A stretch of DNA of 64,000 nt from an uncultured Chloroflexia bacterium (GCA_963731865.1 CAVSXG010000002.1:612057-676056); one strand, 5' to 3'. Shown: positions 5,946 to 42,449, numbered from the stretch's first letter. A program made the numbers and translations. The notes: generated by a model not told the origin, from the letters alone.

Positions 5946-7501
5946 TCGGCCCACGCGAGGCCGGCCATCCGGACGATCCCGAGCCCGTTCTGCCTCGCCC
6001 CGAGCAGCTCGGTTCGCGACAGGGCCCACCCTGGGGCGTAGTGGAGCGGGACTACCGGGACCTCGTCTCGAACGATCAGTTCCGCCCGGTCATAGGCGGC
6101 CGCCGCGTCCTCGGGATCGATCGCTGCCCCCGCTTCGATGATGGCCGCGTCGAAGTCCGCCGAGCTCCACCCGCCGTAGTTGTTGGAGGCTCCGGTTTGC
6201 AGGAGGACCCCGAGGAAATCATTCCGACCGGGATAGTCCGCCACCCAGGTGAGTGTCCACATCTGGGGTGGTTCGGTATCAAGTCGATCGAAGTAGCCAT
6301 CACCCATTGTCTCCCAGGTGAGAGTGACCCCAAGCTCCCGTTCGAGTTCCGCAAGGATCGCCTCGTCGAACCCGCCGCCAAAGGTCATCAGGGTCGTCGC
6401 CGGGAAGTCCGCCCCACCCGGGTAGCCCGCGTCGGCCAGAAGGGCTCGGGCCGCATCAGGATCGTATTCTGGCAGGAAGTCCTGATCGCTCCGGCCCGGA
6501 ATGCCCGGAGGCACCATCGAGTTGGCCAGCTCCGCCGCGCCACTGGCGGCGCCGAGCTCGGCGATCCGCCGCCAGTCGACCGCCAGGCCGAAGGCCTGGC
6601 GCACCCGGACATCGTCGAACGGCGGACGGGTGGTGTCGAAGCCGTAATAGGTGACCGACATCGAGGCCACCTCGCGGAGCTGCGGCCCGAGCGTTTCGTC
6701 ATAGGCAATCCATGTCGCATCGAACCCGCTGATTGGGGCATAGTCGAGCTCATCGGCCTCGAAGGCCGCGACCTCGCTGCGACCGGCCAGGTCACCGACG
6801 AGCTCGATTGAGCTGATTGCCGGAACACCAGCCCAGTAGTGTTCGTTCGCCGTCAGGAGCAGCCCCGAATCCGACGCGCCGGTGAGGACGTATCCGCCGC
6901 TGGCGACGAACCCACTTCCCGGTTCCAGGGCCGCGGCATCCTGTCCGACGCCGGGCGGGACCACGGAAAAGGTCGGCCCGGCCACGATGTTCGGGAAGTC
7001 CGACGCCGGACGCACGAGGTCGACGGTCAGGTCGTTGGCGCCGTCATCTGCGCGCATACCGACGGCATCGGGATCGGGGTTCTGGCCGCGCAGGTAGGCT
7101 TCCGCGCCCGCAATGTCCAGCGCAAGGGAGGCCAGTGGCGAGGGCTGGTCCGGGTCGATGATGCGGAGCCAGCTGCGCACCACGTCGGACGGTCGCAACG
7201 GGCTGCCGTCCGAGAACGCGAGATCCGGTCGCAGGTGGAACGTGATCGTCCGACCGCCCTCGTCGAACGCCCACGATTCGGCCAGCGCCGGACGTAGCTC
7301 GAGGTTGGCATCGAATGCCGTCAGGGACTCGAAGAGCTGGGCACTGATGGCGGCACTCCCGGCGTCACCCATGGCCGCCGGATCGAGCGACTCCGGTGTT
7401 CCTGTGAGGATCCGCGCCGGTCGATCGTCCTGGGCGATGGTCGGGGACGCGCACGACACGAGGGTCGCGAACAGGGCGAAGGTAGCGACCAGCCGCAGCA
7501 T
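5942..7501 (-). CDS. ABC transporter substrate-binding protein, family 5 (peptide/nickel type), lipoprotein
   Basis: SBP_bac_5-like sequence throughout. Lipobox MLRLVATFALFATLVSC begins at ATG 7501; the ORF upstream to 7927 is an R-rich non-genic extension. Confidence 0.8.
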   Translation of the reverse strand: MLRLVATFALFATLVSCASPTIAQDDRPARILTGTPESLDPAAMGDAGSAAISAQLFESLTAFDANLELRPALAESWAFDEGGRTITFHLRPDLAFSDGSPLRPSDVVRSWLRIIDPDQPSPLASLALDIAGAEAYLRGQNPDPDAVGMRADDGANDLTVDLVRPASDFPNIVAGPTFSVVPPGVGQDAAALEPGSGFVASGGYVLTGASDSGLLLTANEHYWAGVPAISSIELVGDLAGRSEVAAFEADELDYAPISGFDATWIAYDETLGPQLREVASMSVTYYGFDTTRPPFDDVRVRQAFGLAVDWRRIAELGAASGAAELANSMVPPGIPGRSDQDFLPEYDPDAARALLADAGYPGGADFPATTLMTFGGGFDEAILAELERELGVTLTWETMGDGYFDRLDTEPPQMWTLTWVADYPGRNDFLGVLLQTGASNNYGGWSSADFDAAIIEAGAAIDPEDAAAAYDRAELIVRDEVPVVPLHYAPGWALSRTELLGARQNGLGIVRMAGLAWAE

Positions 7502-13513: not shown

Positions 13514-13589
13514 TGGCGCCCCCGGACGGACTCGAACCGCCGACGCAGGCCTTAGGACGGCCTCGCTCTGTCCACTGAGCTACGGGGGC
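13514..13589 (-). tRNA. tRNA-Arg (anticodon CCT)
   Basis: Manual cloverleaf: 7-bp acceptor GCCCCCG/CGGGGGC, D-arm GCTC/GAGC, anticodon stem AGGCC/GGCCT with loop GTCCTAA, T-arm GGCGG-TTCGAGT-CCGTC, encoded CCA. Confidence 0.8.
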
Positions 13590-16388: not shown

Positions 16389-16988
16389 CTACGACCGCGT
16401 TGGATCGCCGGTCCGCCGCCCCCCGTCAAAGTCGCGGTGGAACGCCGAGGCCGTCGGTTCCGATTGGCCCTGGTACTTCGATCCGAGCTCGGGCGAGCCG
16501 TATGGCCGATCCACCGGACTGGACATCTTGAAGAAGCTGATCTGGCCAATCCGCATGCCCGCGTAGAGCGCAATCGGCAGGTTGGCGACGTTCGACAGCT
16601 CGAGCGTCAGGTTCCCCTTCCAGCCCGGATCCACGTAGCCAGCCGTCGAGTGGATCAGGAGGCCGAGTCTCCCGAGGCTCGACTTGCCCTCGAGCCGGGC
16701 GACAAGATCGTCCGGCAGCTCCACCCATTCGTGCGTCTGGCCGAGCACGAACTCGCCCGGATGCAGGATGAAGGCCTCGTCCTCGGCCACGGTCAGGAGC
16801 TCGGTCAGGTCAGGCTGGGGAGCGCGAACGTCGATATAGGCGTACCGGTTGTTGCGAAAGACCCGGAAGCTGTGGTCCAGGTGGAGGTCGACCGACGAGG
16901 GCTGGAGGTCGTGAGCGTCGTACGGCCGGATCTTGACCGTCCCGGCATCGAGCGCTGCCCGGATGTCGCGGTCAGACAACACGCTCAC
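16389..16988 (-). CDS. dcd: dCTP deaminase
   Basis: [14 protein letters not shown]...[16 protein letters not shown]...[23 protein letters not shown] dUTPase-like fold. GTG start overlaps the nrdR stop (GTGA). Confidence 0.85.
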
Positions 16989-17543: not shown

Positions 17544-18098
17544 TCAGATGCCCAACTGGTTGCGTTCCGAGGGCGTTTCGTCGGCCCGCAGGTCATCGGC
17601 CCGGACGGCGTGACGGGCGATCGCCTCGCGTGCGTGGATCAGGTTGAGATAGCCGCGCTTGATCGACGTCTGGGCCTCGAGCTCCCGGCTCCCCCGGCGC
17701 GACGCTGCGAGCATGTTTGCGCCGTGTTCGACCATGCCGAGGGCACGTGTGGCGCGTTCGAGTTCGGCCACGAAGTCGTCGCGGATCACCTGCGCCCGGC
17801 GTGGGCCCTTCAGCGCGCGGGCTTCCTCGCCATAGCGCTCGAGCGCCTCTGACGCGAGCACGACCGTCTCGCTGATGACCTCCGGTCCCGCCGTGTTGTG
17901 CCGGACCGCATCGATCCGACCCGTCGCGGACTCGAGCGCCGAATCGACTCGGGCAGCGAGCTCGCGGACACCACGCCGGAACTGGTGGAGCTCACGCGTC
18001 CGTGCCGCGATCCGGGACGTGCCGCGGAACACGACGATCAGCCCGGCGGCGAGCGCGATGAAGGCCATCACTGGCAGGAGGATCACCGCGAGCTCCAT
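17544..18098 (-). CDS. Hypothetical single-pass membrane protein with coiled-coil
   Basis: N-terminal TM helix, then a charged helical region. No known domain. Confidence 0.45.
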   Translation of the reverse strand: MELAVILLPVMAFIALAAGLIVVFRGTSRIAARTRELHQFRRGVRELAARVDSALESATGRIDAVRHNTAGPEVISETVVLASEALERYGEEARALKGPRRAQVIRDDFVAELERATRALGMVEHGANMLAASRRGSRELEAQTSIKRGYLNLIHAREAIARHAVRADDLRADETPSERNQLGI

Positions 18099-18119: not shown

Positions 18120-19103
18120 TCAGGCCGTGCGCGCGCGGAGTTGCTCGAGGAGGGCGGCCCCTACCTCGAACAAGTCCCCCACGACAAGGAGGTCGGCGAA
18201 TTCGGCGATCGGCGCATCCGGGTCGCGATTGACCGCGACGATGCTCCCGGCGGTCTGCATCCCGACCTTGTGCTGGATCGCGCCACTGATCCCCAGGGCA
18301 AGGTAGAGCTCCGGCTTGACGATCTTGCCCGTCTGCCCGATCTGCTGGCTGTAGTTGATCCAGCCCGAGTCAACCGCGGCTCGGGTCGCGCCAACGACAC
18401 CGCCGAGGACCTCGGCCAGGTCACCAACGAGCCCGAAACCGTCCGGGCCGCCCACGCCGCGACCGCCTGCAACGATGATCCGCGCCTCCTCGATCGGGGC
18501 GGCCGCGCCCGCTTCGCTGACACGTTCGACGACCTTGACCGCCGGGATCGTCGGCCCGCCGGCGGTCCGGGTCTCGACCGTGCCCGACGCGTCAGACGGC
18601 ACGGCCGTGATGACGTTGGGACGGACGGTCACGATCCCCCGCCCTGCGGTGAAGTTGGACGTTGTCAACAGCTTGCCGCCAAAGGCGCTCATCTCGACGG
18701 TCGGCCCGGCGTCCGTCCAGGCAACCCCGGTCGCACTCGTGAGGACGCCAAGGCCAGCCAGGGCCGACAGTGCGCCGGCCAGGTCACGACCATCTGGGCC
18801 GGCACCGGTGAGGATGGCGTCCGGCGCTGCCTCGGACTGCTCATCGACCAGGCCGGCGACCCGCGCGGCCGCGATCGCCGACCACGCGTGCCCCTCGGCC
18901 GCGGGATCTGCGATCGTCCACACGCTCGGAAGGAACCGGGCAAGCTCGTCTGCGATCGCGTCAGGGGCTGCGGCCACCACGACGCCGACGACACCGCGGC
19001 CGCTCTGCGCCCCGAGATCGCGAGCGAGCGTGGCCACCTCGGCGGACAGCCGCGACAGGCCGCCTTCCGCCGAAGGCTCCGCGATGACCCACAGGTCGCC
19101 CAT
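18120..19103 (-). CDS. etfA: Electron transfer flavoprotein alpha subunit
   Basis: MGDLWVIAEP...RIIVAGGRGVG...LYLALGISGAIQHKVGM FAD-binding region. ATG at 19103 overlaps the etfB stop (TGATG); the ORF upstream of it is an antisense extension. Confidence 0.85.
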   Translation of the reverse strand: MGDLWVIAEPSAEGGLSRLSAEVATLARDLGAQSGRGVVGVVVAAAPDAIADELARFLPSVWTIADPAAEGHAWSAIAAARVAGLVDEQSEAAPDAILTGAGPDGRDLAGALSALAGLGVLTSATGVAWTDAGPTVEMSAFGGKLLTTSNFTAGRGIVTVRPNVITAVPSDASGTVETRTAGGPTIPAVKVVERVSEAGAAAPIEEARIIVAGGRGVGGPDGFGLVGDLAEVLGGVVGATRAAVDSGWINYSQQIGQTGKIVKPELYLALGISGAIQHKVGMQTAGSIVAVNRDPDAPIAEFADLLVVGDLFEVGAALLEQLRARTA

Positions 19104-19897
19104 CAGATGATCCGCCGCTGCGCGAGGAATTCGACGATCCTCGCGGCCCCGTCCGACGACGACCCGCGGACGATCTCCGTGGCCCCGCGGGCGGGCGGGG
19201 TCCGGCTGTCGAGCACGGCCGTGGTGGCCACGCCGCCTCCGACGGTGGCCGGGTCGATCTCGAGCTCGGCGAGCGAACGAGTGACGATCTCCTTCGACCG
19301 CGCGGCCATGATCCCCTTGAGCGACGGGTAGCGAGGTTCCCCGAGCGCCTGCGTGCAGGAGATCAGCGCGGGCATCGGAGCCTCCAGGACGTCGTACCCG
19401 GTCGGGCTGATCCGTCGGACGCGTACGATCCGGGCACCCTCGTCGGGCTCGATCCGAGCTGCATACGAGAGCAACGGCAACCCGAGAAGTGCGGCCACCG
19501 CCGCGGGGACCGTGCCGCCCAGCCCGTCTGAGGTGTCGACGCCGACCAGGACGAGGTCGAACGTCAACGGCTTGAGCGCCGCGGCGAGGACACGGGCCGT
19601 CGAGACCGTGCATGAACCCGCGAGGGCCGGGTCGGTCACGTGGATTCCGCGCGTCGCGCCCATCGCCAGCGCCTTGCGAAGCGTCTCGGGTGCGGAGGTG
19701 GGGGCCATCGACAGGAGCGTGACCTCGCTCCCATCGGACGCGGCGGTGGTGAGCTTGAGGGCCGCTTCGAGCGCGTACTCGTCATTGCCGTTGACGACCG
19801 AGGGCGTCGCCGTCCGATCGAGGCGGCCGTCGGCGCCGAGCCGCTCACCGCCGGATGCGGGGTCGGGAACCGGTTTTACGAGGACGACGATGTGCAT
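19103..19897 (-). CDS. etfB: Electron transfer flavoprotein beta subunit
   Basis: MHIVVLVKPVPD...NGNDEYALEAALKL typical EtfB. Confidence 0.85.
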   Translation of the reverse strand: MHIVVLVKPVPDPASGGERLGADGRLDRTATPSVVNGNDEYALEAALKLTTAASDGSEVTLLSMAPTSAPETLRKALAMGATRGIHVTDPALAGSCTVSTARVLAAALKPLTFDLVLVGVDTSDGLGGTVPAAVAALLGLPLLSYAARIEPDEGARIVRVRRISPTGYDVLEAPMPALISCTQALGEPRYPSLKGIMAARSKEIVTRSLAELEIDPATVGGGVATTAVLDSRTPPARGATEIVRGSSSDGAARIVEFLAQRRII

Positions 19898-19921
19898 GAA
19901 GTCTGGAACTCCTCCCTGCGA

Positions 19922-21115
19922 TCAGTCGTCCTTGCCAAGCAGTGCTCGTGCGATCACGAGCCGCTGGATCTGTTGGGTCCCCTCGTAGATCTGGGTGATC
20001 TTCGCGTCGCGCATCATGCGCTCGACGGGGAATTCGTCGATGTAGCCGTAGCCACCAAGGACCTGTACCGCGTCCGTGGTGACTCGCATCGCCGTGTCCC
20101 CGGCCACGAGTTTACACATCGCCGACCAGCGACCGGCGTCAGGAGCTCCTGCCTCGATCTCGACGCACGCCTTGTACAGGAGCTGGCGTGCCGCTTCGGT
20201 CCCGGCGTCCATGTCGGCGAGCATCGCGGCGATCATCTGGAGATCTCCGATTCGCTTGCCGAATTGACGACGCTCGGTGGCGTAGCGCGTGGCGACCTCC
20301 AGGGCGCCCTGGGCTATCCCGACCGCCTGTGCGGCAATCCCCGGTCGACTCCGCTCGAACGTCCTCATCGCGATGCCAAAGCCGTCGCCCTCGTCGCCGA
20401 TCCGGTTGTCCGCCGGCACGAGGACGTTGTCGAAAGCGAGCTCGGCGGTCGGGCTGCCCCGGATTCCCATCTTGTGTTCGATTCGAGGCACCGAGAACCC
20501 CGCGGTGGGGACCTCGACCATGAAGCACGAGAGGCGGCGATGTCGGGGCGCTTCCGGATCGGTCACCGCGAAGATCGTGATCAGGTCGGCCACCGAACCG
20601 TGGGAGATGAATCGCTTCGCGCCGCTGATCCGGTAATCGTCGCCATCGCGGATGGCGCGGGTCCGGGTCGCGGCGGCATCGGAACCCGCCTCCGCCTCGG
20701 TCAGGGCGAACGCGATCAGGGACGCACCGCTTGCCAGCTTCGGGAACCAGCGCGCCCGCTGATCTGGCGTGCCGGCGAGCAGCAGCGGCAGCGCGCCCAG
20801 CTCGTGAACGGCGAGGATCAGCCCGGTCGTGGCGCAGGCGCGGCTGAGCTGCTCGACGGCAAGGCAGACCGACAGCAGTTCGCCACCGAGACCGCCGAAC
20901 TCCTCGGGAAACGGAAGGGCCAGGATGTCCTGGGCGGCGAGGAGCTGCCGAAGGTCTTCGGGGAACTCCCCGGTTCGGTCGATATCCGCGGCACGAGGCG
21001 CCACGCGCTCGTCGGCAAGCTCGCGGACGGCATCGCGGAGGAGCCGCTGCTCCTCGGTCAACCGGTAAGGGCCTTGGGCTGGGCTCGGCGCGGTCACTTC
21101 GGCCGATCGTAGCAC
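19922..21115 (-). CDS. Acyl-CoA dehydrogenase
   Basis: Full-length ACAD fold with the catalytic glutamate region YEGTQQIQRLVIARALLG. Confidence 0.85.
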   Translation of the reverse strand: MLRSAEVTAPSPAQGPYRLTEEQRLLRDAVRELADERVAPRAADIDRTGEFPEDLRQLLAAQDILALPFPEEFGGLGGELLSVCLAVEQLSRACATTGLILAVHELGALPLLLAGTPDQRARWFPKLASGASLIAFALTEAEAGSDAAATRTRAIRDGDDYRISGAKRFISHGSVADLITIFAVTDPEAPRHRRLSCFMVEVPTAGFSVPRIEHKMGIRGSPTAELAFDNVLVPADNRIGDEGDGFGIAMRTFERSRPGIAAQAVGIAQGALEVATRYATERRQFGKRIGDLQMIAAMLADMDAGTEAARQLLYKACVEIEAGAPDAGRWSAMCKLVAGDTAMRVTTDAVQVLGGYGYIDEFPVERMMRDAKITQIYEGTQQIQRLVIARALLGKDD

Positions 21116-21246
21116 CGGGACGACGCGGCTTCCGGGGATGCGGTCTATGCCCTATTGCCGCCCGTCTGAGCCGCGCGTAGTCTCCTGTCAGCTGGTGGAC
21201 TGCGGCTTCGGGGGTCGCGGCAACCAGCAATCCGGGGTCACGCGAT

Positions 21247-21465
21247 ATGGAACAGACCCAGCTCGTTGCCATCACCGGCGCGGCCGCGCTTGGCATCCTG
21301 GCCACGATTGCCATCCTGCGCAGACAGCGCCACGCGCTCGAGCCACCACGAGAATCCCCGTTCGCGGTCTCCACCGAGGGCGAGAAACGCTGTCCGAAGT
21401 GCGGGATGGGCAACCTGTGGACGCAGGACCGCTGCATCACGTGCGGGACGAAGCTCGCGGGCTGA
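21247..21465 (+). CDS. Small membrane protein with C-terminal zinc ribbon
   Basis: TM helix followed by CPKCG...CITCG. Sits alone on the plus strand between minus-strand genes. Confidence 0.4.
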   Translation: MEQTQLVAITGAAALGILATIAILRRQRHALEPPRESPFAVSTEGEKRCPKCGMGNLWTQDRCITCGTKLAG

Positions 21466-21559
21466 TCAGAGCACCGGCAACTGCCGCGCGGCGGGGGCCG
21501 CGGCGATCCGGGCCGCAAGCACCTCGCTGACGTCCAGGGTCGCCACGGCCCGCCCGCCA

Positions 21560-23590
21560 TCAGCTGCCGCCAGGCCGTCGCTGAGCATGACCATGCAGAA
21601 CGGGCACGACGTCGCCACGGTGGCGGCGCCCGTCTCGACGACCTGACGGGCGCGCTCGGCATTGATCCGCGTGCCGCGCGTCTCCTCCATCCACATTCGA
21701 CCACCACCCGCGCCGCAGCAGAACGTGTTCTTGCCGCTCTTCTCGAGTCTCGGTGATGGTGACCCCGGCCGCGCCGAGGACGTCGCGTGGCGCGGCGACC
21801 ACGTTGTTGTAGCGGGCTAGATAACACGAGTCGTGCACCGTGACGGCGCCGGGCCGGTGATCCCCGGTGGTCGAGGTCGCATCCTCAGGGAGCGTCGCCA
21901 ACCGTCCAGATGCCACGAGATCGGCAAGGAACGTGCTGTGGTGGACGATCCGGAACTGGCCGCCGAGCTGGCCGTATTCGTTGCCGATCGTGTTGAAGCA
22001 GTGTGGGCAGGCGGTCACGATCGTTCGCTCACCCATGCCGTACCGGTTGAGCGTCTCGACGTTGCCCGACGCGAGGATCTGGTAGACGTAGTCGTTGCCC
22101 ATTCGCCGGGCCGGATCGCCGGTGCACGACTCCTCCTGGCCGAGAATGGCGAACTCCACGCCCGCGGCGTGGAGACAGGTCGCCACGGCACGCGCGACCT
22201 TCTGGTTCCGCGGGTCGAATGCGGCCGCGCAGCCCACCCAGTACAGGACCTCGAGCCCATCGAGCCCCCCCGCGGCAGCGACGTCGGCCACGAGGGGCAC
22301 CTCGAACGGGAGGCTCTTCGTCCAGTCGGTCCGCGCAGATGCCGGCTGGCCCCACGGGTTGCCCTGGCCTTCCATCGCCCGGAACGCCGGCGTCAGCTCG
22401 GCCGGGAAGCGGCTCTCCTCGAGGACAAGGTTGCGACGCAGCCCGACGATCTTGTCGACGTGCTCGATCAGGACCGGGCAGGCCTCGACGCACGCGCCGC
22501 AGGTGACGCAATCCCAGACCGCGTCGTACGGGATCGCGGTATCGACGATCGGTCGGGCCAGGGCCGCTGCCGCGGGTCGCGTGCCCTCGAGGCCGTACGT
22601 CTCGCGCACGATGGGGCTGTTGGGGATCAGGTCGATCCCGTGCTCGGCCTCGACCGACATGTCCCGGATGCCCATGATGAAGGTCTTGGGGTTGAGCGGC
22701 TTGCCGGTCGTCCAGGCCGGGCAGGCCGCCTGGCAGCGACCGCATTCGGTGCAGGTAAAGCCGTCGAGCAGATCCTTCCAGCCGAGGTCCTGGAGCGTCT
22801 TGAGCCCAAAGGTCGCGCTCTCGTCCTCGAGATCCATCTGGGGAAGCTCGCCACGCGGCGCGAGCTTGCGGAACAGGATGTTCGGGAAAGCTCGTGGCGA
22901 TGTGGAGGTGCTTGGAGAACGGCAGGTAGCACAGGAACGCCGCGACAAGCGCCATGTGGCCCCACCACAGGACGGCGAATGCAGCTTCGAGGCGTCGATG
23001 CGCCGAGCGCCCGCAGGGGCACGGCCAGGGCGTTCGACACGAACGCGCCGGTGATCTCGCCGTACCGCGCGACCTCGAAGGCCTGGGCCAAGCAGCTCGG
23101 TGGCGACGACCCCGCCGATCATGCCCAGGATCACGAGGGCATCGCGGTTGAAGGTGAGCCGCGCCGGCCGGGTGACGAGCCGACGAAGGTACGCCCAGCC
23201 GATCGAGACGAGGACGATGACGGCGACCACGTTCTGCATCGCGCTGATCGCCGCCCACAGCGCGCCGTCGAGCGGGATCGCGCAGGACGGTCTGGATGAT
23301 CCCGCCGGTCACGATGTCCGCCGTCCCGATCGTCAGCAGCACGAACCCCCAGAAGATGCCCGGCGTGCAGGAGCCCGGCGCGCAGGTCCTTGAACATCTT
23401 GGTCTGGAGGAACGCGTACTGGACCAGCCCGACGAGGCGCGCCGGGACGTTGGCGAACGGGCGCGACGGCCGGGCGACCGCGAACACCCGCAGGTGTCGG
23501 GCCATGGCCAGCGCGAAGAAGACCGCGGCACCCCAGAACACGCGGGAAGACGAGCGGATAGGCCGGGACCTCGACGAACGGCTCGAACAT
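21560..23590 (-). pseudogene. Membrane-bound (Fe-S)-binding oxidoreductase, heterodisulfide-reductase/GlpC-like (EtfD/Rv0338c-like), with multiple frame changes
   Basis: N-terminal polytopic membrane domain and C-terminal 2x(4Fe-4S)/CCG regions (CTECGRCQAACP, CVTCGACVEACP, WVGCAAAF, CPHCFNTIG). Pieces lie in at least 4 frames (23590, 23541, the 22029.. frame, and 23239/21560). ATG 23590 overlaps the mogA stop. Confidence 0.6.
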
Positions 23591-24062
23591 CAGGCGGTCG
23601 TGCCGTGGTCGTGCGGACCGGCCAGTGTCTCGAGCGCGTGGTCGAGCACGGTCTCGATGCGCCTCGAGCGATTCGAGCGCGCCCTTCGGGCTGCCCGGCA
23701 GGTTCGCGATCAGCGATCGCCCGCGCACGCCGACGACCCCGCGCGACAGGTCGGCCAACGGCGTCTTCGCTCGGCCGGCCGCTCGCATCGCCTCGGCGAG
23801 GCCCGGGAACCTCGTAGTCGATCACGCCTCGGGTCGCCTGCGGCGTCACGTCGCGGGGCGTGAGCCCGGTCCCGCCGGTGGTCACGACGAGCGGGTGGCG
23901 TGCGGCTCCCATCGATCGAGCGCCTCGCTCGATCGCAGCCTGGTCATCGGGGACGAGGACCCGCTCCACCTCGTACCCGAGCGTCGCCAGGCGATCGGCG
24001 ACGCCGGCTCCGGAGACGTCCTCGCGGACGCCGGCCGCGGCGCCATCGCTGGCCGTGATCAC
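23590..24062 (-). pseudogene. Molybdenum cofactor biosynthesis protein MogA/MoaB family, frameshifted
   Basis: N-terminal part ...PLVVTTGGTGLTPRDVTPQATRGVIDYEVPG is in the 24062 frame. ...MRAAGRAKTPLADLSRGVVGVRGRSLIANLPGSPKGALESLEA is in a second frame. The tail IETVLDHALETLAGPHDHGTTA* is in a third. Junction at ~23795-23806 (cccgggcc). Confidence 0.65.
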
Positions 24063-24089
24063 CAGCGCGGATCGCTCGGACGCCAGTCG

Positions 24090-24684
24090 TCATGCGCGGG
24101 TCGCCCTGCGCTTCCCGCCGATCCTGCCCGCGATCCGTCGCCCGGATGGCGGTTCGGGGCGGTCGTCCACCGGGCCGGGCGCGCGCTCCCAGGTCCCGCT
24201 CTTGCCGCCGGTCTTGGAGAGCAGTCGCACGCCGCGGATCTCGACGCCGCGCTCGGCGCCCTTGACCATGTCGTAGACGGTCAGCGCCGCGACCGACGCC
24301 GCGGTCATCGCCTCCATCTCGACGCCGGTCTGACCGGTCGTGGCGGCCTCGGCCCGGATCCGCAGGACGCCGACTGGCTCGATCCGGGGTGATCGCCACC
24401 TGGAGATCGGTGAGCGGGAGCGGGTGGCACAGCGGGATCAGCTCGCTTGTCCGCTTGCCGCCCATCACGCCCGCCAGCTCGGCCACGCCGAGGACGTCGC
24501 CCTTGGAGCCGCCGCCGTCGATCACGAGGCTCATCGTCTCGGGCGAGACCGCCACCGTGGCCTCGGCGACCGCGCGACGCGCCGTGACCGGCTTGGCCGA
24601 CACGTCGACCATCCGTGGCCGGCCCGACCGGTCGACATGCGAGAGCCGTCGACGCTCGGATCGCGGCGCTGGTTTCTGGTCCAT
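24090..24684 (-). pseudogene. moaC: Cyclic pyranopterin monophosphate synthase MoaC, frameshifted
   Basis: N-terminus ...[19 protein letters not shown]...[21 protein letters not shown] is in one frame. C-terminus ...[28 protein letters not shown] is in the 24090..24317 frame. Junction at ~24385-24392 (ccccgg). Confidence 0.65.
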
Positions 24685-24689
24685 TCGGT

Positions 24690-26052
24690 CCTCCGGGTCG
24701 GGTGGCGATCGGGTCAGGCGCTGTCGAGCCACCAGATGGCGACCTCGGCGCCCGCCGGAAGCGAGTCGAGCGGATTCTGGAACGATCGCGAGGGCATCGG
24801 CGGCAGCGAGGGCGGACATCACGTGACTCCCCTGCCCGCCCGCGAGGCGGACGCGGACACGGCCCCGCTCGTCGCGGACCGGCGCGCCGTCGTCGGACCG
24901 TTCCGCCTGGACGCGCAGGTACGCCCGACGACCGTGGCTCTTGGTGACGGGCTGCATCGAGCACGGCCCGATCGGCCGGACGGAGCAGGTCGCGCCGCCC
25001 GGCGAGACGCCGGATCGCGGGCCGGACGAAGAGCTCGAACGTGACCGCCGACGAGACCGGGTTTCCAGGCAGGCCAAAGACCGAGGATCGGCGCACCGCC
25101 GTCGGGTCGCGGCGCGGTGCCGAACGCGAACGGCTTGCCCGGTTGGACCGCCACCCGCCAGAGATCGACCCGTCCGATCGTCTCCATGGCGGTCTTGACG
25201 ACGTCGTACGGCCCGACGGACACGCCGCCCGAGATGATCAGCGCGTCGGCCCCGACCTCGATGCCGCCGCGCAGCCGCTTGAGCACGTCGGCGAGATCGT
25301 CGGTCGCGATGCCGAGATCGATCGCTTCTGCGCCCGCGGCTGCGACCTGGGCGCGCAGACCGGGGCCGTTGGCATCGGGAATGCCCGCCGGGCCCAGCGG
25401 CTCGCCGGGCGCCCGGATCTCGTCGCCGGTCGCGAGCACGCCGACACGCGGGCGTCGGTAGACGCGGAGCGCATCGACGCCGGCGCCGGCGACCAGGGCA
25501 ATCGCGGCCGCCGTCAGCGCGACGCCGGCCTCGAACAGCGTGTCGCCCGGCCCGGAGGTCGCTCGCGGCATCGCGGATGGAGCCACCGACCGGCACGACC
25601 TCGTGGACGAGGCAGGCCGACGGCAGCGGACCAGTCGCATCCCGTCCACGAGACCCGGGATGGCCAGCCGCATCGAGCGGGGTCGTCAGTTCGACCGGCA
25701 CGACGGCGTCGGCGCCGTCGGGAAGCCGCGCGCCGGTGGCGATTCGGACGGCCGTCCCGGGCCGGACGACGACGCTTGGCGCGGCCCCTGCCGCGACATC
25801 GCCGATGACGCGGAGCTCGACCGGGCTGGCGTCGGCTGCCCCGGCGGTATCGGCGGCCTGGATCGCGTACCCGTCCATCGCCGAATTCGGCCACGGCGGC
25901 AGCGAGACCCGCGCGGTCACGGGCTCGGCGACGACCCGCCCGAGCGCGGCGGCCGTCGACATCCGCTCGGTCTCCACCGGGACGAGCTCGGCGAGGATCG
26001 CATCGCGTGCCGCCTCGACACTGAGCAGACCCGGAGCCGCGGGCGCCGTCAT
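24690..26052 (-). pseudogene. moeA: Molybdopterin molybdotransferase MoeA, several frameshifts; 3' end approximate
   Basis: MoeA segments (...[20 protein letters not shown]..., ...[24 protein letters not shown]...[11 protein letters not shown]..., ...[29 protein letters not shown]..., ...[19 protein letters not shown]) are distributed over three frames. One junction at ~25547-25556 (gccgggcg). Confidence 0.6.
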
Positions 26053-26068
26053 CGGCTTCGCGCGGGGG

Positions 26069-26772
26069 TCACGACTGGCTCGATCCGCTGCGGTCGTGAG
26101 CTCGGTGGTCGGCGCGCGGCCCACGCCGACGGTCGCCCGGCGCCCCGCGAGCGACGGCAGTGACGAGGGCGAGCGCGATGATCACGACGCCGACGACGAC
26201 CGCGGTCTCCTGCCAGAACACGAAACGGGAAGAGCTGGACGAGCCGCTCCGTCGCCGGGTCGAAGGTGTACGAACCGCCTGGGAACAGCAAGCCGATGGA
26301 ACAGCTCGAACAAGGCCTCGAACGCGACCAGCGCAACGACCCCGATCAACGCCACGGCTCCCGCCAGCACGAGCGCGCCACGACGAACCGCGACCCAGAC
26401 CGCCGCGTCGTTCCATGCGCCGGCTCGCCGACGAGGAGGATGACGAGCGACGCCGCCGCGAGGATCCAGAGGCCCGATGAAGACCGTCCGCACGTCGCGC
26501 ATGTGCCCGCGCTCGCGCTCGACGAGGACCGGCGACCCGCCAACCTCCACGTCGAAGTCCGGCGGCCCGATGACCAGGTCCGACAGGATGGCGTCGGTCG
26601 CGGTCCGGAGCTCCTCGGTCGTGTAGCCGGTCCACGCGACGGCGTTCGCGCGACCCTGCTCGAAGGCCACCCACTGCGGGGTCAGGAACGGCAGCACAGC
26701 GGCCGTGACGACGACGGTCGCGGTCGCCACCCCGATCAGGATCGAAGCGATCGGCCTCCGGATGGCGTGCAC
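26069..26772 (-). pseudogene. Hypothetical integral membrane protein (possibly DUF1461/TIGR01906-like), apparently frameshifted
   Basis: Convincing N-terminus MHAIRRPIASILIGVATATVVVTAAVLPFL...VERERGHMRDV. A C-terminal TM ([21 protein letters not shown]) lies in another frame. Confidence 0.35.
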
Positions 26773-26798
26773 CGGGTCATCCTAGCCCGTCGCGCGGC

Positions 26799-27188
26799 CT
26801 ACTCGTCCTCGAGCGTCTTCGCCTGGTCCCACCAACCCTCCATGGCGAGATCCGATGGCGGGTCGACCTTGAGCTCGATGGCCGCCGCGCGGACCCGCGC
26901 CTTGAACACATCCAGCGGCAACTCGAGGATCTGCCGAAGGCCCTCGATCCCCGCCTGGACCAACAGCTCGTGCTCCGCCGGACCAAAGCTCGCGAGGTTG
27001 AGCATGAGCGCCTCGTCTCGCCACATCAGCACGTCGTTGACGGTGGCGTCGACCTGGTCCGCGAGGTTCTGGCGGCGGGTCGGCGTCTCCGAAACCTCGA
27101 GCAGCAGACCGGTCGTGAAGACGCCCTGATGGTCGAGGCGATCGAGATGGACCGGCTCGATGCGGGTCAGCTCGTTGATCGGTGGCAC
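26799..27188 (-). CDS. DUF4332-like helix-hairpin-helix protein
   Basis: LTRIEPVHLDRLDHQGVFTTGLL and a second HhH-like repeat. Confidence 0.45.
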   Translation of the reverse strand: MPPINELTRIEPVHLDRLDHQGVFTTGLLLEVSETPTRRQNLADQVDATVNDVLMWRDEALMLNLASFGPAEHELLVQAGIEGLRQILELPLDVFKARVRAAAIELKVDPPSDLAMEGWWDQAKTLEDE

Positions 27189-27277
27189 GGGTCGGGCGGG
27201 ACCTCCAAAGGCGATGCTGGCGATCTGGCTTGGCTCGCGATGGGGTCATTATCCCCGCGCTGGTGGTGCGTCGCGCG

Positions 27278-27592
27278 CTAGATCGGTCGGAGATGCGAGA
27301 TCACACCGTAGGTCCTTCCGGTCTCGGGGTCGTTCCGGGCCGCAACGACCAGGCGTCGCAGTCCCGCCGGAGTCTCGATCCGGCAGGCCAGAGCCGCGCC
27401 ACGCTGGTAGACAAGGTCCATCAGCTCGAACGCGGCCGGCGGCAGATCCAGGAGCGCCTCACGGGCCGGCTGGCCGACGCACCCATTGCCGAACGCCTCG
27501 ATAAAGGCGGCGTTGCCATGCACGATGAGGTGGCCGGGGCCAATGTGAAACGCCGCGGGGTACGGGCGTCGCGCGGCTGAGTCGACGCCCAT
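27278..27592 (-). CDS. Small hypothetical protein (PAS-like fold), translationally coupled to the decarboxylase
   Basis: ATG at 27592 overlaps the decarboxylase TGA (ATGA). 104 aa with no low-complexity sequence. Confidence 0.4.
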   Translation of the reverse strand: MGVDSAARRPYPAAFHIGPGHLIVHGNAAFIEAFGNGCVGQPAREALLDLPPAAFELMDLVYQRGAALACRIETPAGLRRLVVAARNDPETGRTYGVISHLRPI

Positions 27593-29092
27593 CAGACCGC
27601 CGCCACCTGTTCCGCGGCGGCCGCGCGCAACAGGTCCCACGCTCGCTCGACGTGCCGGCTCTCGGTCCGAAGGTTGCCGACCGCGACCCGGATCGTGAAT
27701 CGCCCGGCGAGTCGCGTGTGCGACAGGAACACCTCGCCGGTACGATTGACCGCATCCATGATCGCCGCATTCGCGTCATCGAGCAGCTCGCGCGACGTCC
27801 GGCGCCTCGGCACGGTTGGCAAGCTCGGCGGGCCGCCAGCGGAAGCAGACCGTCGAAAATGGGACAGGCGCCAGGAGCTCCCAGTCCGGATCGGCCCCGA
27901 TCGTCGCGGCGAGATCGGCGGCGAGCTCGAGGTGGCGCTCGATCCGTCGTCGCAGACCGTCGAGCCCGAACCAGCGCAGCTGGATCCACAGCTTGAGCGC
28001 CCGGAACCGACGTCCGAGCTGCGGGGTGTACTCGTTGTAGTCGCGGACCGGCGTCGCGCGATCGAGGGTCCGCAGGTACTCGGGCACAAGACTGAAGGCT
28101 GCCCGCAGCTCCGGCATTCGGCGCGTCAGCAGAAGCGATGCGTCGAGCGGCGTGAACAGCCACTTGTGCGGGTTGATCACGATCGAGTCGGCTCGTTCCC
28201 AACCCGCAAAGGGTGCGCGACGGTCGGGCAGCATGGCGACGACGCCGGCATAGGCGGCATCGACGTGCAGCCAGAGGCCTTCCTGCGCCGCGACGTCCGC
28301 AATCGCTGCGACCGGATCGACCGAGGTCGACGATGTCGTTCCGACCGTCGCCACGATTGCGATCGGCCGGAATCCACGCAGCCCGGTCTTCCGCGATCGC
28401 CTGCCGCGAGCGCGTCCACGACCATCTCGAACCGCTCGTTCACCGGAACGCGGACGAGCGAAACACGCCCAAGCCCGAGGGTCATGCACGCCTTCTCGAC
28501 CGAGCTGTGCGCCTCGGCCGAGGCGTAGACGCGCAACCCGGCACCCAGGTCGTCGCGGGCGGCCAGACCGCGAGCCGAGGCATCCGTCCCCGCGGCTTCC
28601 CGGGCCGCCGCCAGCGCGATCAGCGTCGAGGTCGACGCGGTGTCCGGTGAGGAGTCCGTCGAACCCGTCGGGCAACCCGACGGCCTGCCGCAGCCAGTCG
28701 ACGACGACCTCCTCGAGCTCCGTGCCGATCGGCGAGGTCCGCCACAGCATCGGGTTCTGGCCGAGGGCCGCCGTCAGCATCTCCCCGAGGATTCCGGGGC
28801 CCGATGCCGTCGTCGCGAAATAGGCGAGGAACCCCGGGTGTTGCCAGTGCGTGGCGTTTGGTTCGACCAGCCGGGCATAGTCGGCCAGGATCGCCTCGAT
28901 CGGTTCAGGGGCCTCCGGCGCCGCGGTCGGGAACTGGGGTCGCAGGGAGCCGGGCTCGATCGCCGGAAAGACCGCGCGTGTCTCGACCGTTTCAAGGTAG
29001 TCGGCCATGACGTCGACGACCGCGTGCGCGGCCGCCCGAAAGGCCTCGACGTCCATGTCAAGGAGTGGGGCTGGATGGTCCGGGTCGGTCAC
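27592..29092 (-). pseudogene. Pyridoxal-dependent (group II) amino-acid decarboxylase, frame changes in the middle
   Basis: N-terminus ...WQHPGFLAYFATTASGPGILGEMLTAALG..., middle ...RVYASAEAHSSVEKACMTLGLG... (other frame), PLP region ...WLHVDAAYAG...INPHKWLFTPLD..., C-terminus ...LSHTRLAGRFTIRVAVGNLRTE (third frame). Confidence 0.65.
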
Positions 29093-29116
29093 CGGGCCAG
29101 TGTATGACCTGCCCTA

Positions 29117-29524
29117 TACCGTGTCGGCCGATCGCCCTCCGAGGAACCCGGCAACCGCCTCGACCAGCTCGGCGGGACGATACGGCTTGGCCAGGAAGCC
29201 CGACGCGCCCGTGGCGAGGGCGGTGGCCCGTTCGGCCGGCAGCACGCTCGCGCTCAGGACCACGAATGGAGGGCTTGGACCGCCGCGATCGGCGCCTTCC
29301 CACATTAGCGACAGCCCGTTCCCGTCCGGTAGACGGACGTCGAGCAGGACGAGGTCAACGTGGTTCGTGGCGAGGATGGCGCGGGCGGTTGCCAGGTCCG
29401 GCGCTTCGAGCAGGACCAGCCCGCGCAGACGGTCATCGGTCGCTCGTTCGAGCACCGCACGCAGCAGTACGCGGTTCGGCTCCTCGTCCTCGACGACGAG
29501 GACGACGGGGGGTCGTGCCGTCAA
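29117..29524 (-). CDS. Response regulator, receiver domain only
   Basis: VVLVVEDEEPNR...LVLLDVRLPDGNG...AKPYRP. A likely TTG start overlaps the upstream TGA (TTGA). Confidence 0.65.
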
Positions 29525-32195
29525 CGAGACGCCAGCGGCACCGCGTGATCGAGCCAATCGAGCAGCCCGACGCGAGCATCCTGTCCCTTGGTCACAATGC
29601 CGAGGATTTTCCCATTGAGCCGGTACTTCTGCTCCGGGCTCAGGTCGTGACCGGTGCACACCACGATCGGCAGGCCCGCCGTGCGTTGGTTGTGCTTCAG
29701 TGCGGCGATGACCTCGAACCCATCCACGTCCGGCATCACCAGGTCGCAGACGACGAGATCGACGAGTTGGCCGTTCTCGGCCCACTCGAGTGCCTCCCGG
29801 CCACCCTGCGCGGTGACCACCACTACGCCTTCGGGCTCGAGTGCCCCGCGGATATAGGCGAGCGCGGCGGGCTCGTCGTCAACGACGAGCACCCGTTTGG
29901 CCACGCCGCGCACGTCGTCCGCCGCCACGAACCGCGCCAGACAGCCAAGCAGCGCCTCGCGATGGATCGGCTTGACCAGGTAATCGACGGCGCCGAGCGC
30001 CAGCCCGACCTCGCGTTCCTCGACGACCGTCACGATGACCACCGGCACGTCCTGGAGCTGTGCGTCCGCCTTTAGCCGCCGGAGGACTTCCCAACCGTCC
30101 ACGCCCGGCAGGAGGACATCCAGGACGATGGCCGCCGGACGCGAGGCCCTGGCAGCCGTGATCCCGGTCTCCCCCGTGGAGGCGACCCTGACCTGGTATC
30201 CCGCCCCCTCGAGATACTCGCGGAGCAATCGAACCGCACTCGGATCATCCTCGATGACCAGGATGTCGCCCGATACGGCAGGTGCGCCGTCGGCCGTTTC
30301 CAGACCGGGCAAGTGGGTCGTTCGATGGCCGCACCCTCGGCGTCCTGCGCCGGCAGGACGAGCGTGAACGTGCTGCCGTGACCACGCGCCGACTCCAGTT
30401 CGATCCTGCCACCGTGCGCCTCGGCCAGGCGTTTCGTCACCGCGAGCCCCAGTCCCGAGCCCGGCTGTCGCTCGGACGGGTCGCCAACCTGGCGGAATTC
30501 CTCGAAGACGCGCGGGTGATCCTCGGCCGCGATCCCGACGCCGGTGTCGGCAACGGCAATCCGAACCTCGCCACCGGCCATCGACGCCGTCACCCGGATG
30601 GACCCGCCATCGGGCGTGTACTTGATCGCGTTCGAGATCAGGTTGTAGAGGATCTGGCGGAACCGGCCGCGGTCCACGGCCACGTTGAACGAGCGTGCTT
30701 CCGCGTGGAATGCGAGGTTCTTGCGATCCGCCAGCGGGCGCAGGCCGTTGACCGCTTCGGTGACCGCGAGACCAACGTCGACGGGCTCCGGGCGGAGCTC
30801 CAGGCGGCCCGCTTCGACCCGGGCAAGATCGAGGACATCGTTGACCAGGGTCAGGAGGTGCTGTCCGCCACGCTGGATGTGGTCCACCCATTCGATCGGC
30901 ACCGATACGTTGTCGCCATCGCGTGGCTCCGTGGTCATCAGGTCGCTGAAGCCGATGATCGCCGACAACGGCGTCCTGAACTCGTGGCTCATCGATGCCA
31001 CGAAGTCGCTCTTCGCGGCGCTCGCCGATCGCAGCGCCTCGACGGTGGTCGCCAGGCGGTCGGCCAGTGCCTCCTGGTCCGCCATCACGGCACGCCGCTC
31101 GGCGACGATCGCCGTCTGCGCGCCAAGGGCCGCGAGCAGCTCGGCATCTGACGGGTGGAACAGGGCTCGGTGGGTGGACATCAGAATGAGGGCGCCGCGG
31201 TCGCCACTTCCCGGCAGCTCGACTGGGACAATCGAGACATACCGGGCGCCGGCCGCCTCGGCCAGAGCCTTGCGGATCGGACCAACCTCCGCGACCGGGA
31301 CGTCCCAGCGCGACCGGCCGGACTGCACGTTCTCGTCGAACTGCGACCACGTCATCGACTCGAGGTTCTCGGGCGCGGTCATGCCGGTGGTCGCGATCAG
31401 GGACACGGCTCCGGTACGCGGCCCAGTCAGCATCGCCGCGAAACCGCCCTGCATCCGAACGGCGACGTCCGTGAAGCCAGTCCAGATTCTGTCGATCGGG
31501 TCTCCTGAGCGCGCGATCAGCTCGCGCGTGTAGTCAACCGTCGTCCGCGCCTGCGCGATGCGACGAATCGGGCCGGGCGGGAGCAGTGCCAGCACATATC
31601 CGACGCCCGACAGGAGCGCGAGGACAGCAGCGGTAGCGCTCGAGACCGCGGTCGGAGCGGAGATGACGGCACCCACGGTCGCGACGACCAGGGCGAACGC
31701 GAAGACCCCGGTCGAGATCCCGGCCAGACCCATCCGGACCGCGACTGGACCCCTTCGGCGGACCGCTTCCAGGAGGAGGTAGATCGCCGCTGCCGCCTCA
31801 AAGACGACGAACCCGCCAACGACGACGATCGCGGCGATGGCCCTCGGCCCGACCACATCGATCGCGCCCGGCAGGACGACAGCCAGAGCGGTTCCTCCGA
31901 CGAGGATGATCGCGCTCGCCCAGAGCAATTGCCGAGGGACCGGGCGAAGCAGGGACACGAGATGCAGGACAAAGACCGGCTGCAACAGGAACAGTCCGCC
32001 CGCGATCGCCCGAAGGATGGGTGACGGCGACCCGACTGATCCTTTCCAGATCTCACCAACCAGGGCCGCTGCAAGGGGGCTGAACACCAACGCCAGGTCG
32101 CGGCTCACCGGGTCACGCTGTCGGGCGTACCTCCAGAGGGTCGCGAGGAACGGGACGAGGAAGAGTCCCTCCACGATGGCGGTCAGCCAGTTCAT
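29521..32195 (-). pseudogene. Hybrid sensor histidine kinase (membrane sensor, HisKA, HATPase_c, two receiver domains), 1-nt frameshift between kinase and receivers
   Basis: Polytopic N-terminus, SHEFRTPLSAI H-box, GLGLAVTKRLAEAHGGRIELES ATP-lid. Then, in another frame, two REC domains (DILVIEDDP...LDVLLPGVDG..., KRVLVVDDEP...DLVMPDVDG...). Junction at ~30315-30325 (gcccggtc). Confidence 0.7.
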
Positions 32196-42372: not shown

Positions 42373-42449
42373 TGGTCGGGGCGGCCGGATTTGAACCGAC
42401 GACCACCAGTCCCCCAGACTGGTGCGCTACCAGACTGCGCCACGCCCCG
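42373..42449 (-). tRNA. tRNA-Pro (anticodon GGG)
   Basis: Manual cloverleaf: acceptor CGGGGCG/CGCCCCG, anticodon stem CCAGT/ACTGG with loop CTGGGGG (G37), T-arm GTCGG-TTCAAAT-CCGGC, encoded CCA. Confidence 0.8.

Follow-up and report, generated by a model that had tools for sequence, protein, structure and literature searches.

Genes for an acyl-CoA dehydrogenase, an electron-transfer flavoprotein and a membrane Fe-S protein lie side by side

The stretch of DNA that we analysed (hereafter the window; 64,000 nucleotides, GCA_963731865.1 CAVSXG010000002.1:612057-676056) comes from an uncultured Chloroflexia bacterium, and this work deals with the genes at its positions 18120-23590, which encode an acyl-CoA dehydrogenase (ACAD), both electron-transfer flavoprotein (ETF) subunits as well as a membrane Fe-S oxidoreductase of the EtfD type. 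As the window has a G+C content of about 69%, six-frame lists are crowded with spurious open reading frames (ORFs), and genes were picked by third-position GC and by their translations. The gene etfA, encoding the large, flavin adenine dinucleotide (FAD)-binding subunit of ETF, occupies positions 18120-19103 (327 aa; Pfam ETF and ETF_alpha, 4.8e-33), etfB, encoding the small subunit, positions 19103-19897 (264 aa; Pfam ETF, 5.9e-36, and alignments with PDB entries), and the gene of a short/medium-chain type ACAD positions 19922-21115 (397 aa; Pfam Acyl-CoA_dh_N, _M and _1, E down to 1.7e-47); all three reading frames are intact. The gene of the Fe-S protein, etfD, spans positions 21466-23590 and encodes 705 aa after frame correction. 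An earlier note on this DNA had placed these four genes next to one another on one strand, and all of them do lie on the minus strand, but the end it gave for the oxidoreductase gene, 21560, has to be moved to 21466. The distance between the etfD stop and the ACAD start thereby becomes 350 bp once the frames are corrected, and not 450 bp. A small zinc-ribbon membrane protein that had been noticed in between is indeed present (21247-21465, 72 aa, supported by an ORF and by the third-position GC frame), but its gene is on the opposite, plus strand and is not part of the strand shared by etfD and ACAD.

We infer from tblastn with the EtfA protein of a syntenic 2.3-Mb contig, L001, whose residue 1 falls at 19103, that the etfA ATG is at 19103-19101, so that base 19103 belongs to the etfB stop as well. 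For ACAD two start codons come into question, the GTG at 21115 (397 aa) and the GTG at 21097 (391 aa), the second of which is the one annotated in a close relative.

The 120 best database matches of the EtfD protein are 80-93% identical to it, and those bearing a name are metagenome-assembled genomes (MAGs) of Candidatus Limnocylindrales/Chloroflexota; likewise, the best genome loci for etfD are Chloroflexia/Limnocylindria MAGs. Judged by these matches, the host is a Limnocylindria-like member of the Chloroflexota and not of the Actinobacteria, so that the actinobacterial frame in which the locus had been viewed does not hold.

The membrane Fe-S protein is an EtfD orthologue

Pfam recognizes two CCG stretches (3.9e-30) and a 4Fe-4S dicluster domain in the corrected Fe-S protein. 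When it was compared by phmmer with all PDB sequences, one strong match was found, EtfD of Mycobacterium smegmatis (MsEtfD, 9ojn_A), with an E value of 1.4e-136 and an alignment of query residues 52-691 with chain residues 54-741, thus spanning both the membrane and the soluble parts. The AlphaFold2 model of the protein (pLDDT 85, pTM 0.86) matches the same structure in Foldseek over 734 columns (E 8e-42, TM-scores 0.87/0.83), while the next matches, LutA, HdrB and NarI, each cover a single domain (TMq 0.2-0.28, with HdrB at 0.28). The model contains five long transmembrane (TM) helices, and short ones follow TM I and TM IV, an arrangement known from the EMO proteins. The single polypeptide begins with a NarI-like haem-b domain of five helices, continues with two cubane [4Fe-4S] motifs and ends in two CCG domains. 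The architecture proposed from the DNA alone, a NarI-like membrane domain joined to two CCG/4Fe-4S modules, is therefore borne out by Pfam, by the model and by the 9ojn match.

All MsEtfD ligands listed in PMC13083937 map onto identical residues of the window protein. In the membrane domain, H75 and H228 correspond to MsEtfD His78/His241, the bis-His ligands of the proximal haem b; F82 and F217 to Phe85/Phe230 at the modelled menaquinone site; R136 and R283 to the haem contacts Arg137/Arg306; and H210 to the third histidine of EMO membrane domains (MsH223, SaH233 in the Syntrophus aciditrophicus protein, SaEMO). With five TM helices and both the His and the Phe pair in place, the haem/quinone domain has outlived the correction of the frames, as the earlier note's own test required. 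The CxxCxxCxxxC motifs of the cubane clusters D3 and D4 are C278/281/284/288 and C359/362/365/369 (MsEtfD Cys301/304/307/311 and Cys412/415/418/422). A cluster of the linear [3Fe-4S] type would be held by the Cys-Thr and CPHC signature, C452, C487-T488, C526 and C529 (MsEtfD Cys503/538/581/584 with Thr539), and a non-cubane cluster by C587/622/623/660/663 with H528 as its histidine cap (MsEtfD Cys637/672/673/709/712 with His583), both types being assigned after the mycobacterial protein. His528, capping the proximal cluster, and Thr488, in place of the Hdr cysteine, represent the EtfD state at both positions that render the Hdr clusters catalytic. Across 20 diverse homologues (34-93% identity) the ligand columns are invariant, except for a SaEMO-type CC...CxHG variant in 2 of the 20.

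Sequence identity of the window protein to EtfD of Mycolicibacterium, Pseudonocardia and Micromonospora is 39-40%, and to the Leptospira homologue 37%. A neighbour-joining tree of 81 EtfD homologues, built with no outgroup and no support values, put the Limnocylindria clade beside the actinobacterial one, but we do not rely on it. Because the match to EtfD is full-length in both sequence and fold, the ligands are kept, and other CCG families either fall below their cut-offs or align over one domain, sequence and model together identify the Fe-S protein as an EtfD/EMO orthologue of the Rv0338c type. The earlier note had arrived at the same assignment and had set in advance a test by which it could fail, namely a closer kinship with GlpC, LutA or GlcF; the full-length match to 9ojn, against rivals with one domain or with scores below cut-off, decides this test in favour of EtfD.

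Linkage of etfD with ACAD and etfBA is conserved in Chloroflexota

In L001 and in a second close relative, L002, all genes are intact and follow the order moeA-moaC-mogA-etfD, a small gene on the opposite strand, and ACAD-etfB-etfA-184-aa ORF-nrdR-dcd. The same order of etfD and ACAD-etfBA is found in 8 further Chloroflexota loci, with EtfD identity down to 44-46%. Since the order recurs in all these loci, the adjacency is more than chance, and on this comparison the linkage of etfD with ACAD-etfBA is conserved across the class.

For a wider view, one genome per species was scanned with two conserved EtfD motifs, which gave 80 loci from many phyla, and these were then searched by tblastn with the window proteins, a procedure that may miss divergent ETFs. 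Any etfBA within 10 kb of etfD was found in 24 of the 80 loci. In 8 of the 80, all from Chloroflexota, etfD is followed on the same strand by (ACAD-)etfBA within 0.4-6 kb, and a tight etfB-etfA-etfD operon is present in 12 of 80 (Gemmatimonadota, Thermoleophilia, Bacteriovorax, Desulfobacteraceae, Hydrogenedentes, Burkholderiaceae and others); etfBA lies directly downstream of etfD in 2 loci and is more loosely linked in another 2. Among loci with full 10-kb flanks, etfBA was nearby in 15 of 39, compared with about 1.5% expected by chance (binomial P ~1e-24, the loci being phylogenetically non-independent). None of the loci from Actinomycetes (including Mycobacteriales) and Acidimicrobiia in this survey had etfBA within 10 kb of etfD, which agrees with the earlier statement that the two are unlinked in mycobacteria.

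The Chloroflexota EtfD very probably passes electrons from the neighbouring ACAD and ETF to menaquinone

Considering homology, the structural model and analogy with characterized members of the family together, we think it very probable that the product of 21466-23590 is an ETF:menaquinone oxidoreductase of the EtfD/EMO family, made as one polypeptide and fed by the neighbouring ACAD and EtfBA. In this scheme, ACAD would oxidise acyl-CoA to enoyl-CoA, and the EtfBA heterodimer would re-oxidise the FADH2 of ACAD. With EtfB as the docking subunit, reduced ETF might then bind the CCG domains on the cytoplasmic side of EtfD, the FAD domain of ETF swinging towards the CCG domain, and electrons might run through the linear [3Fe-4S]-type cluster (distal), the non-cubane [4Fe-4S] cluster (proximal), the two cubane [4Fe-4S] clusters and the b haem (His75/His228) to menaquinone in the membrane, thus linking beta-oxidation to respiration. 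It is by analogy that we infer the electron path, the docking of ETF, the quinone acceptor and the number of haems. For the passage of electrons from ETF to menaquinone, the ACAD-etfBA genes 350 bp from etfD and the wide spread of etfBA linkage among family members give indirect support.

Several findings weigh against this reading. In the PDB, bifurcating ETFs give the highest scores with EtfB and EtfA, and EtfA lacks an arginine common to ETFs of different kinds, which makes it an atypical ETF (both points are taken up below). Not every insertion that breaks the etfD frame sits in a homopolymer, so the frameshifts could be real. The linkage is loose, as etfD lies outside the ACAD-etfBA transcription unit, and one relative, L005, has no etfBA at this site. 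Finally, the window protein is without the disordered C-terminal tail of about 265 residues, which an AlphaFold3 model of the mycobacterial protein suggested to mediate ETF binding; it ends some 15 residues after the alignment, which stops at chain residue 741 of 1042. The mycobacterial subtype typically carries a C-terminal region of 13-30 kDa that is long, disordered and has interspersed repeats, and the window protein is thus without it; this trait is lineage-specific and unneeded for family membership, and the tail is dispensable for the family.

The ETF is atypical and probably non-bifurcating

ACAD consists of the three usual domains (Pfam N, M and C) and has, near its C-terminus, the sequence IYEGT with the YEG motif of the catalytic Glu. 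Its best solved relatives are ACADs (414 bits). No NCBIfam equivalog by which a substrate specificity could be assigned reaches its cut-off with this protein.

An alternative to the feeding of EtfD would be that ACAD and EtfBA form a self-contained bifurcating complex, of the Bcd-Etf or CarCDE type, which uses NADH and ferredoxin, the proximity of etfD being incidental. We consider this improbable, even if several observations speak for it. Among solved structures, EtfB and EtfA are closest to bifurcating ETFs (CarDE 6fah, Clostridioides difficile 5ol2, 7koe and 4kpu, with E values of 1e-37 to 1e-47, compared with 1e-18 to 1e-37 for human and Paracoccus ETF), and the best NCBIfam matches are clostridial acryloyl-CoA reductase subunits, though all of them well below cut-off. 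Moreover, in one surveyed locus, L045 from a deltaproteobacterial MAG, a classical bifurcating-type ETF (TRPAFGGNIMATI in EtfA, DRVFGGADTLATS in EtfB) is encoded directly upstream of an etfD/EMO homologue (4870-6861), at a distance of about 1.5 kb; a bifurcating-type ETF would not be expected beside a quinone reductase.

On the other hand, the alignment shows that the window EtfA reads E-M137-S138-AFGGKLLTTS, with Met-Ser where all four bifurcating ETFs compared, and Paracoccus ETF as well, have Arg-Pro, so the arginine of TRP-x-FGGN-(I/L)-MATI by which bifurcating ETFs are recognized is replaced. In bifurcating ETFs the conservation of this residue (Afe Arg146) reaches 99%, and flavin binding is lost when it is substituted (PMC10279923). 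It needs to be mentioned that the motif (T/E)RP-x-(F/Y)-(G/A)-G-N is common to bifurcating and Paracoccus ETFs, and as the canonical Paracoccus ETF also has the arginine, its loss marks an atypical ETF and is no proof of the canonical type. Furthermore, Ile157 of the bifurcating-FAD site is a serine in the window EtfA, the protein has no ferredoxin-type N-terminal extension, and the etfD neighbourhood is conserved across the class. The closest ETF outside Chloroflexota belongs to a Thermoleophilia etfBA-etfD operon, L052 (48% and 43% identity). Because Met-Ser replaces Arg-Pro in EtfA, and because the ETF of L052 is encoded in an etfBA-etfD operon, we read the window ETF as an atypical and probably non-bifurcating partner of EtfD. 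We also considered Asp93' of EtfB (Cys96 here) as a marker of bifurcation and rejected it, since the non-bifurcating W3A1 ETF has Asp at this position and close relatives of the window protein vary between Asp and Cys.

Frameshifts in etfD seem to be sequence or assembly errors

The coding sequence of etfD moves from one minus-strand frame to another and uses all three. By frameshift-aware alignment, and by ungapped tblastn with the closest homologue, exactly seven single-base insertions were located, at about 23542, 23361, 23279, 23092, 22992, 22889 and 21748; the true stop codon is at 21466-21468, and 21560 is merely where an out-of-frame ORF ends. We also mapped frame changes by aligning the proteins of L001 to the window, and 18 more were found, in mogA, moaC, moeA, a Lit-family gene and genes for a pyridoxal-phosphate decarboxylase and a histidine kinase, as well as in nrdR, while the same alignment revealed none in ACAD, etfB, etfA, dcd and six other genes. 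Of these 25 changes, 24 fall within 21.7-30.3 kb (8.6 kb), across seven unrelated genes, and 22 are +1 insertions; the adjacent 13.7-21.7 kb contain a single one, that in nrdR (at about 17240).

Two explanations of this pattern have to be weighed. According to the first, etfD and the upstream molybdenum cofactor (Moco) genes are true pseudogenes, and ACAD-EtfBA use another acceptor or are decaying as well. This could be argued from the contrast between the intact ACAD, etfB and etfA and the seven breaks in etfD, with 17 more over the 8.6 kb that follow, and from several insertions being outside homopolymer runs. According to the second, the breaks are errors of sequencing or assembly. The corrected EtfD aligns with no gap and 94% identity to a metagenomic protein which also has 705 aa; once corrected, the gene is free of in-frame stops and of further indels; the ligands are kept; and comparison with two intact orthologues gives a dN/dS of 0.05-0.07, where these two compared together give 0.083. 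The breaks are spread over unrelated neighbours and are mostly single-base insertions, as expected of read or assembly errors and not of gene decay in bacteria, they affect nrdR too, and in all close relatives etfD and its neighbours are intact. As a local burst of insertions across unrelated genes is combined with no sign of relaxed selection, the frameshifts are in all likelihood errors, and we regard true pseudogenes as quite improbable. Automated annotation of the source assembly will thus wrongly call etfD, mogA, moaC and moeA pseudogenes because of the many single-base insertions. The stretch 21700-30350 as a whole has the appearance of a locally error-rich part of the assembly.

The least probable alternative, and a very improbable one, is that the Fe-S protein is some other CCG enzyme (HdrDE, GlpC, GlcF, LutA, TfrB or DsrK-like) whose substrate is not ETF, because, although the CCG and dicluster domains are common to all these proteins, HdrDE has the same overall architecture (PMC13083937) and weak NCBIfam scores were obtained, these scores stay far below the curated cut-offs of 278-800 bits (TfrB 126/385, LdhH 107/800, GlpC 53/278, DsrK 43/400 and GlcF 22/333), EtfD alone matches over the full length in sequence and fold, the residues at the Hdr-catalytic positions are those of EtfD, and the membrane domain is fused as in EtfD/EMO.

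EtfD and ACAD-etfBA belong to separate transcription units

The 72-aa gene on the plus strand stands tail-to-tail with etfD and head-to-head with ACAD. Its product has one TM helix (residues ~6-24, by hydropathy) and a C-terminal CxxC...CxxC (Cys4) zinc ribbon; no Pfam family was recognized in it, and a weak four-Cys prefix match (Pfam/NCBIfam) was slightly below cut-off. It is kept at the same position and on the opposite strand in L001-L007, with 57-85% identity. Because this conserved opposite-strand gene intervenes, the gene order places etfD and ACAD-etfBA in separate transcription units and not in one operon, and the operon link suggested for them has to be given up.

On the upstream side, mogA (~23590-24090), moaC (~24093-24684) and moeA (~24714-26052), all on the minus strand, were located by tblastn and frameshift-aware alignment with L001 proteins, with the Pfam labels of the corresponding L001 and L002 genes as further evidence. 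The etfD ATG overlaps the stop of mogA as TGATG (23592-23588), which we read directly in the sequence and which confirms the overlap reported before; such a stop/start overlap is present in the window, L001 and L002. In 8 Chloroflexota genomes (L003-L010) moeA-moaC-mogA are immediately upstream of etfD, and these account for the 8 of 80 surveyed loci with mogA in this position. Since the placement behind moeA-moaC-mogA is kept, co-transcription of etfD with the Moco genes, as had been proposed, is plausible, and etfD would be the apparent last gene of a moeA-moaC-mogA-etfD unit. EtfD itself needs no molybdenum cofactor. No riboswitch was found near the Moco genes by the Rfam scan.

ACAD, etfB and etfA would then form their own unit downstream on the same strand, behind the 72-aa gene. 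It might also include a 184-aa ORF (17544-18098, minus strand, 21 bp downstream of etfA), which encodes an N-terminal TM helix and a helical remainder and had no Pfam or NCBIfam match. This ORF follows etfA in L001, L004, L006, L007 and L010 and comes directly after ACAD in L005. It is possibly co-transcribed with ACAD-etfBA.

Alignment with L001 and L002 revealed an extended -10-like motif, TGCTACGAT, directly upstream of ACAD (21106-21114, minus strand), and CCGGTGCTA(C/G)GATC is kept in the window, L001 and L002 although the spacer around it has diverged. When the spacer between the 72-aa gene and ACAD was aligned across five loci, no palindromic operator was seen, just the short TGCTACGAT element. 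It is possible that this motif is the own promoter of ACAD-etfBA; if translation starts at the GTG at 21097, it would fit an extended -10 element that drives a leaderless mRNA from about 21097. When 17.4-24.2 kb were scanned for consensus sigma-70 promoters and terminators, which is uninformative in this GC-rich phylum, no promoter turned up, and the single terminator-like site, located within etfD, did not exceed the number seen in shuffled sequences.

The Chloroflexota EtfD among known systems

Co-immunoprecipitation and genetic work (PMC8593149), an activity assay together with a structure (PMC13083937) and the structure of an EMO:EtfAB complex (bioRxiv 10.64898/2026.08.18.745454) have demonstrated the partnership of ETF with EtfD, which therefore is no longer in need of genomic support. 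Neither is the co-localisation new as independent support, as had been supposed, since ETF genes clustered with a membrane Fe-S oxidoreductase have been reported in Syntrophomonas wolfei (Swol_0696-98; PMC3582634) and, with the same kind of oxidoreductase, in Desulfococcus multivorans (PMC5109826), and a fadF-acdA-rpoE operon in Bacillus subtilis (PMC5397183). Beites et al. relied on co-occurrence, not on synteny, and had matches almost only in Actinobacteria owing to a cut-off of 30% identity and 75% coverage (PMC8593149). EtfD and EMO are now treated as one family, said to be general in menaquinone-containing fatty-acid degraders. The window thus provides a further, phylogenetically interesting EtfD/EMO protein, with both its family and the type of its genomic association already known, and no new evidence for the partnership; it adds little to a case already built on genetics, biochemistry and two cryo-EM studies, the more so as tighter etfBA-etfD operons are common elsewhere. 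What it does is to add an aerobic, uncultured class of Chloroflexota to the EtfD/EMO family as defined by structures, and to show that the MsEtfD-type cofactor signature (Cys-Thr and CPHC, with the His cap) is not confined to Actinobacteria.

The closest known system is mycobacterial EtfD (Rv0338c; MSMEG_0690, 9OJN), with which the window protein shares full-length homology (37-39% identity, TM-score 0.87), five TM helices, the haem-b His pair, the Phe pair of the modelled menaquinone, two cubane clusters, the Cys-Thr and CPHC signature and the His-capped non-cubane cluster. It differs in its length (705 aa vs 1042 and 882 aa), having neither the C-terminal tail nor an internal loop, and MsEtfD Arg150 lies in an insertion which is missing here. 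Mycobacterial etfD is unlinked to etfBA (PMC8593149), whereas the window gene is near ACAD-etfBA, behind Moco genes and in a Chloroflexota host.

The EMO proteins of S. aciditrophicus (SYN_02638) and S. wolfei (DUF224 protein Swol_0698) are of one family with EtfD, both being treated as a single enzyme in the literature, and the three membrane histidines are kept. Docking mediated by EtfB has been demonstrated for SaEMO (bioRxiv 10.64898/2026.08.18.745454), and in S. wolfei the EMO gene is clustered with etfBA (PMC3582634). Unlike the window protein, with its MsEtfD-type T488 and C529, SaEMO has a distal twin haem, a [4Fe:5S] cluster and Gly for the second Cys of CPHC, and it works in a reverse loop driven by proton motive force in an anaerobe. 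FadF of B. subtilis (YwjF, BSU37180; in a FadR-regulated operon) and the proteins of the FadF/Dmul_C01000 clusters of D. multivorans are likewise membrane Fe-S oxidoreductases encoded beside ACAD and/or etfAB, and a Brevibacillus homologue with 35% identity has an ACAD gene 2.3 kb downstream. However, phyla and gene order are different, B. subtilis has its etfBA in another fad operon, and in the window the ACAD-etfBA unit is downstream, behind an opposite-strand gene.

Methanogen HdrDE/HdrBC are evolutionary relatives of EtfD/EMO, in which a CCG non-cubane module and two cubanes likewise sit on a cytochrome b of the NarI type. In Hdr the clusters carry out catalysis and are exposed to solvent, whereas the window protein is a fused polypeptide with the His and Thr substitutions of the EtfD type, and HdrB aligns with one domain of it. 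Human and proteobacterial ETF-QO (ETFDH) does the same job, passing electrons from ETF to quinone, but it is not homologous to EtfD (PMC8593149). ETF-QO is a monotopic FAD/[4Fe-4S] protein.

Wider neighbourhood and other genes of the window

In the window, as in the Limnocylindria loci, etfD has the dCTP deaminase gene dcd (16392-16988 in the window) 4.5-7.5 kb downstream, and in 10 loci of the Actinomycetota type (L023, L030, L032, L034, L037, L041, L047, L051, L056 and L069) dcd is within 700 bp of an etfD homologue. This may be a remnant of synteny common to both phyla; no functional link is apparent. One could go further and read these arrangements jointly, so that in Limnocylindria a conserved moeA-moaC-mogA-etfD unit would end in a translationally coupled etfD, within a block etfD - ACAD - etfBA - 184-aa ORF - nrdR - dcd whose remnant, etfD beside dcd, persists in many Actinomycetota. 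We give little credence to this joint reading. If it were true, EtfD might be co-regulated with a molybdoenzyme or also drain its electrons, and the linkage kept in the window might be the ancestral state, the unlinked genes of mycobacteria being derived from it.

A Limnocylindria-type moeA-moaC-mogA-etfD...ACAD-etfBA block, with EtfD identity of 74%, is also present on a 9.3-kb contig (L003, DASRJS010000129.1) binned as Candidatus Polarisedimenticolia (Acidobacteriota), which is probably a mis-binned Chloroflexota contig. Rfam and ARAGORN matches in the window were limited to tRNA-Arg(CCT) at 13514-13589 and tRNA-Pro(GGG) at 42373-42449, both on the minus strand. The remaining part of the window carries housekeeping genes, namely der/engA, ispH, dxs, gpsA, scpA, a recN-like gene and genes for an asparaginase, an MFS transporter and a SnoaL-adenylate cyclase.

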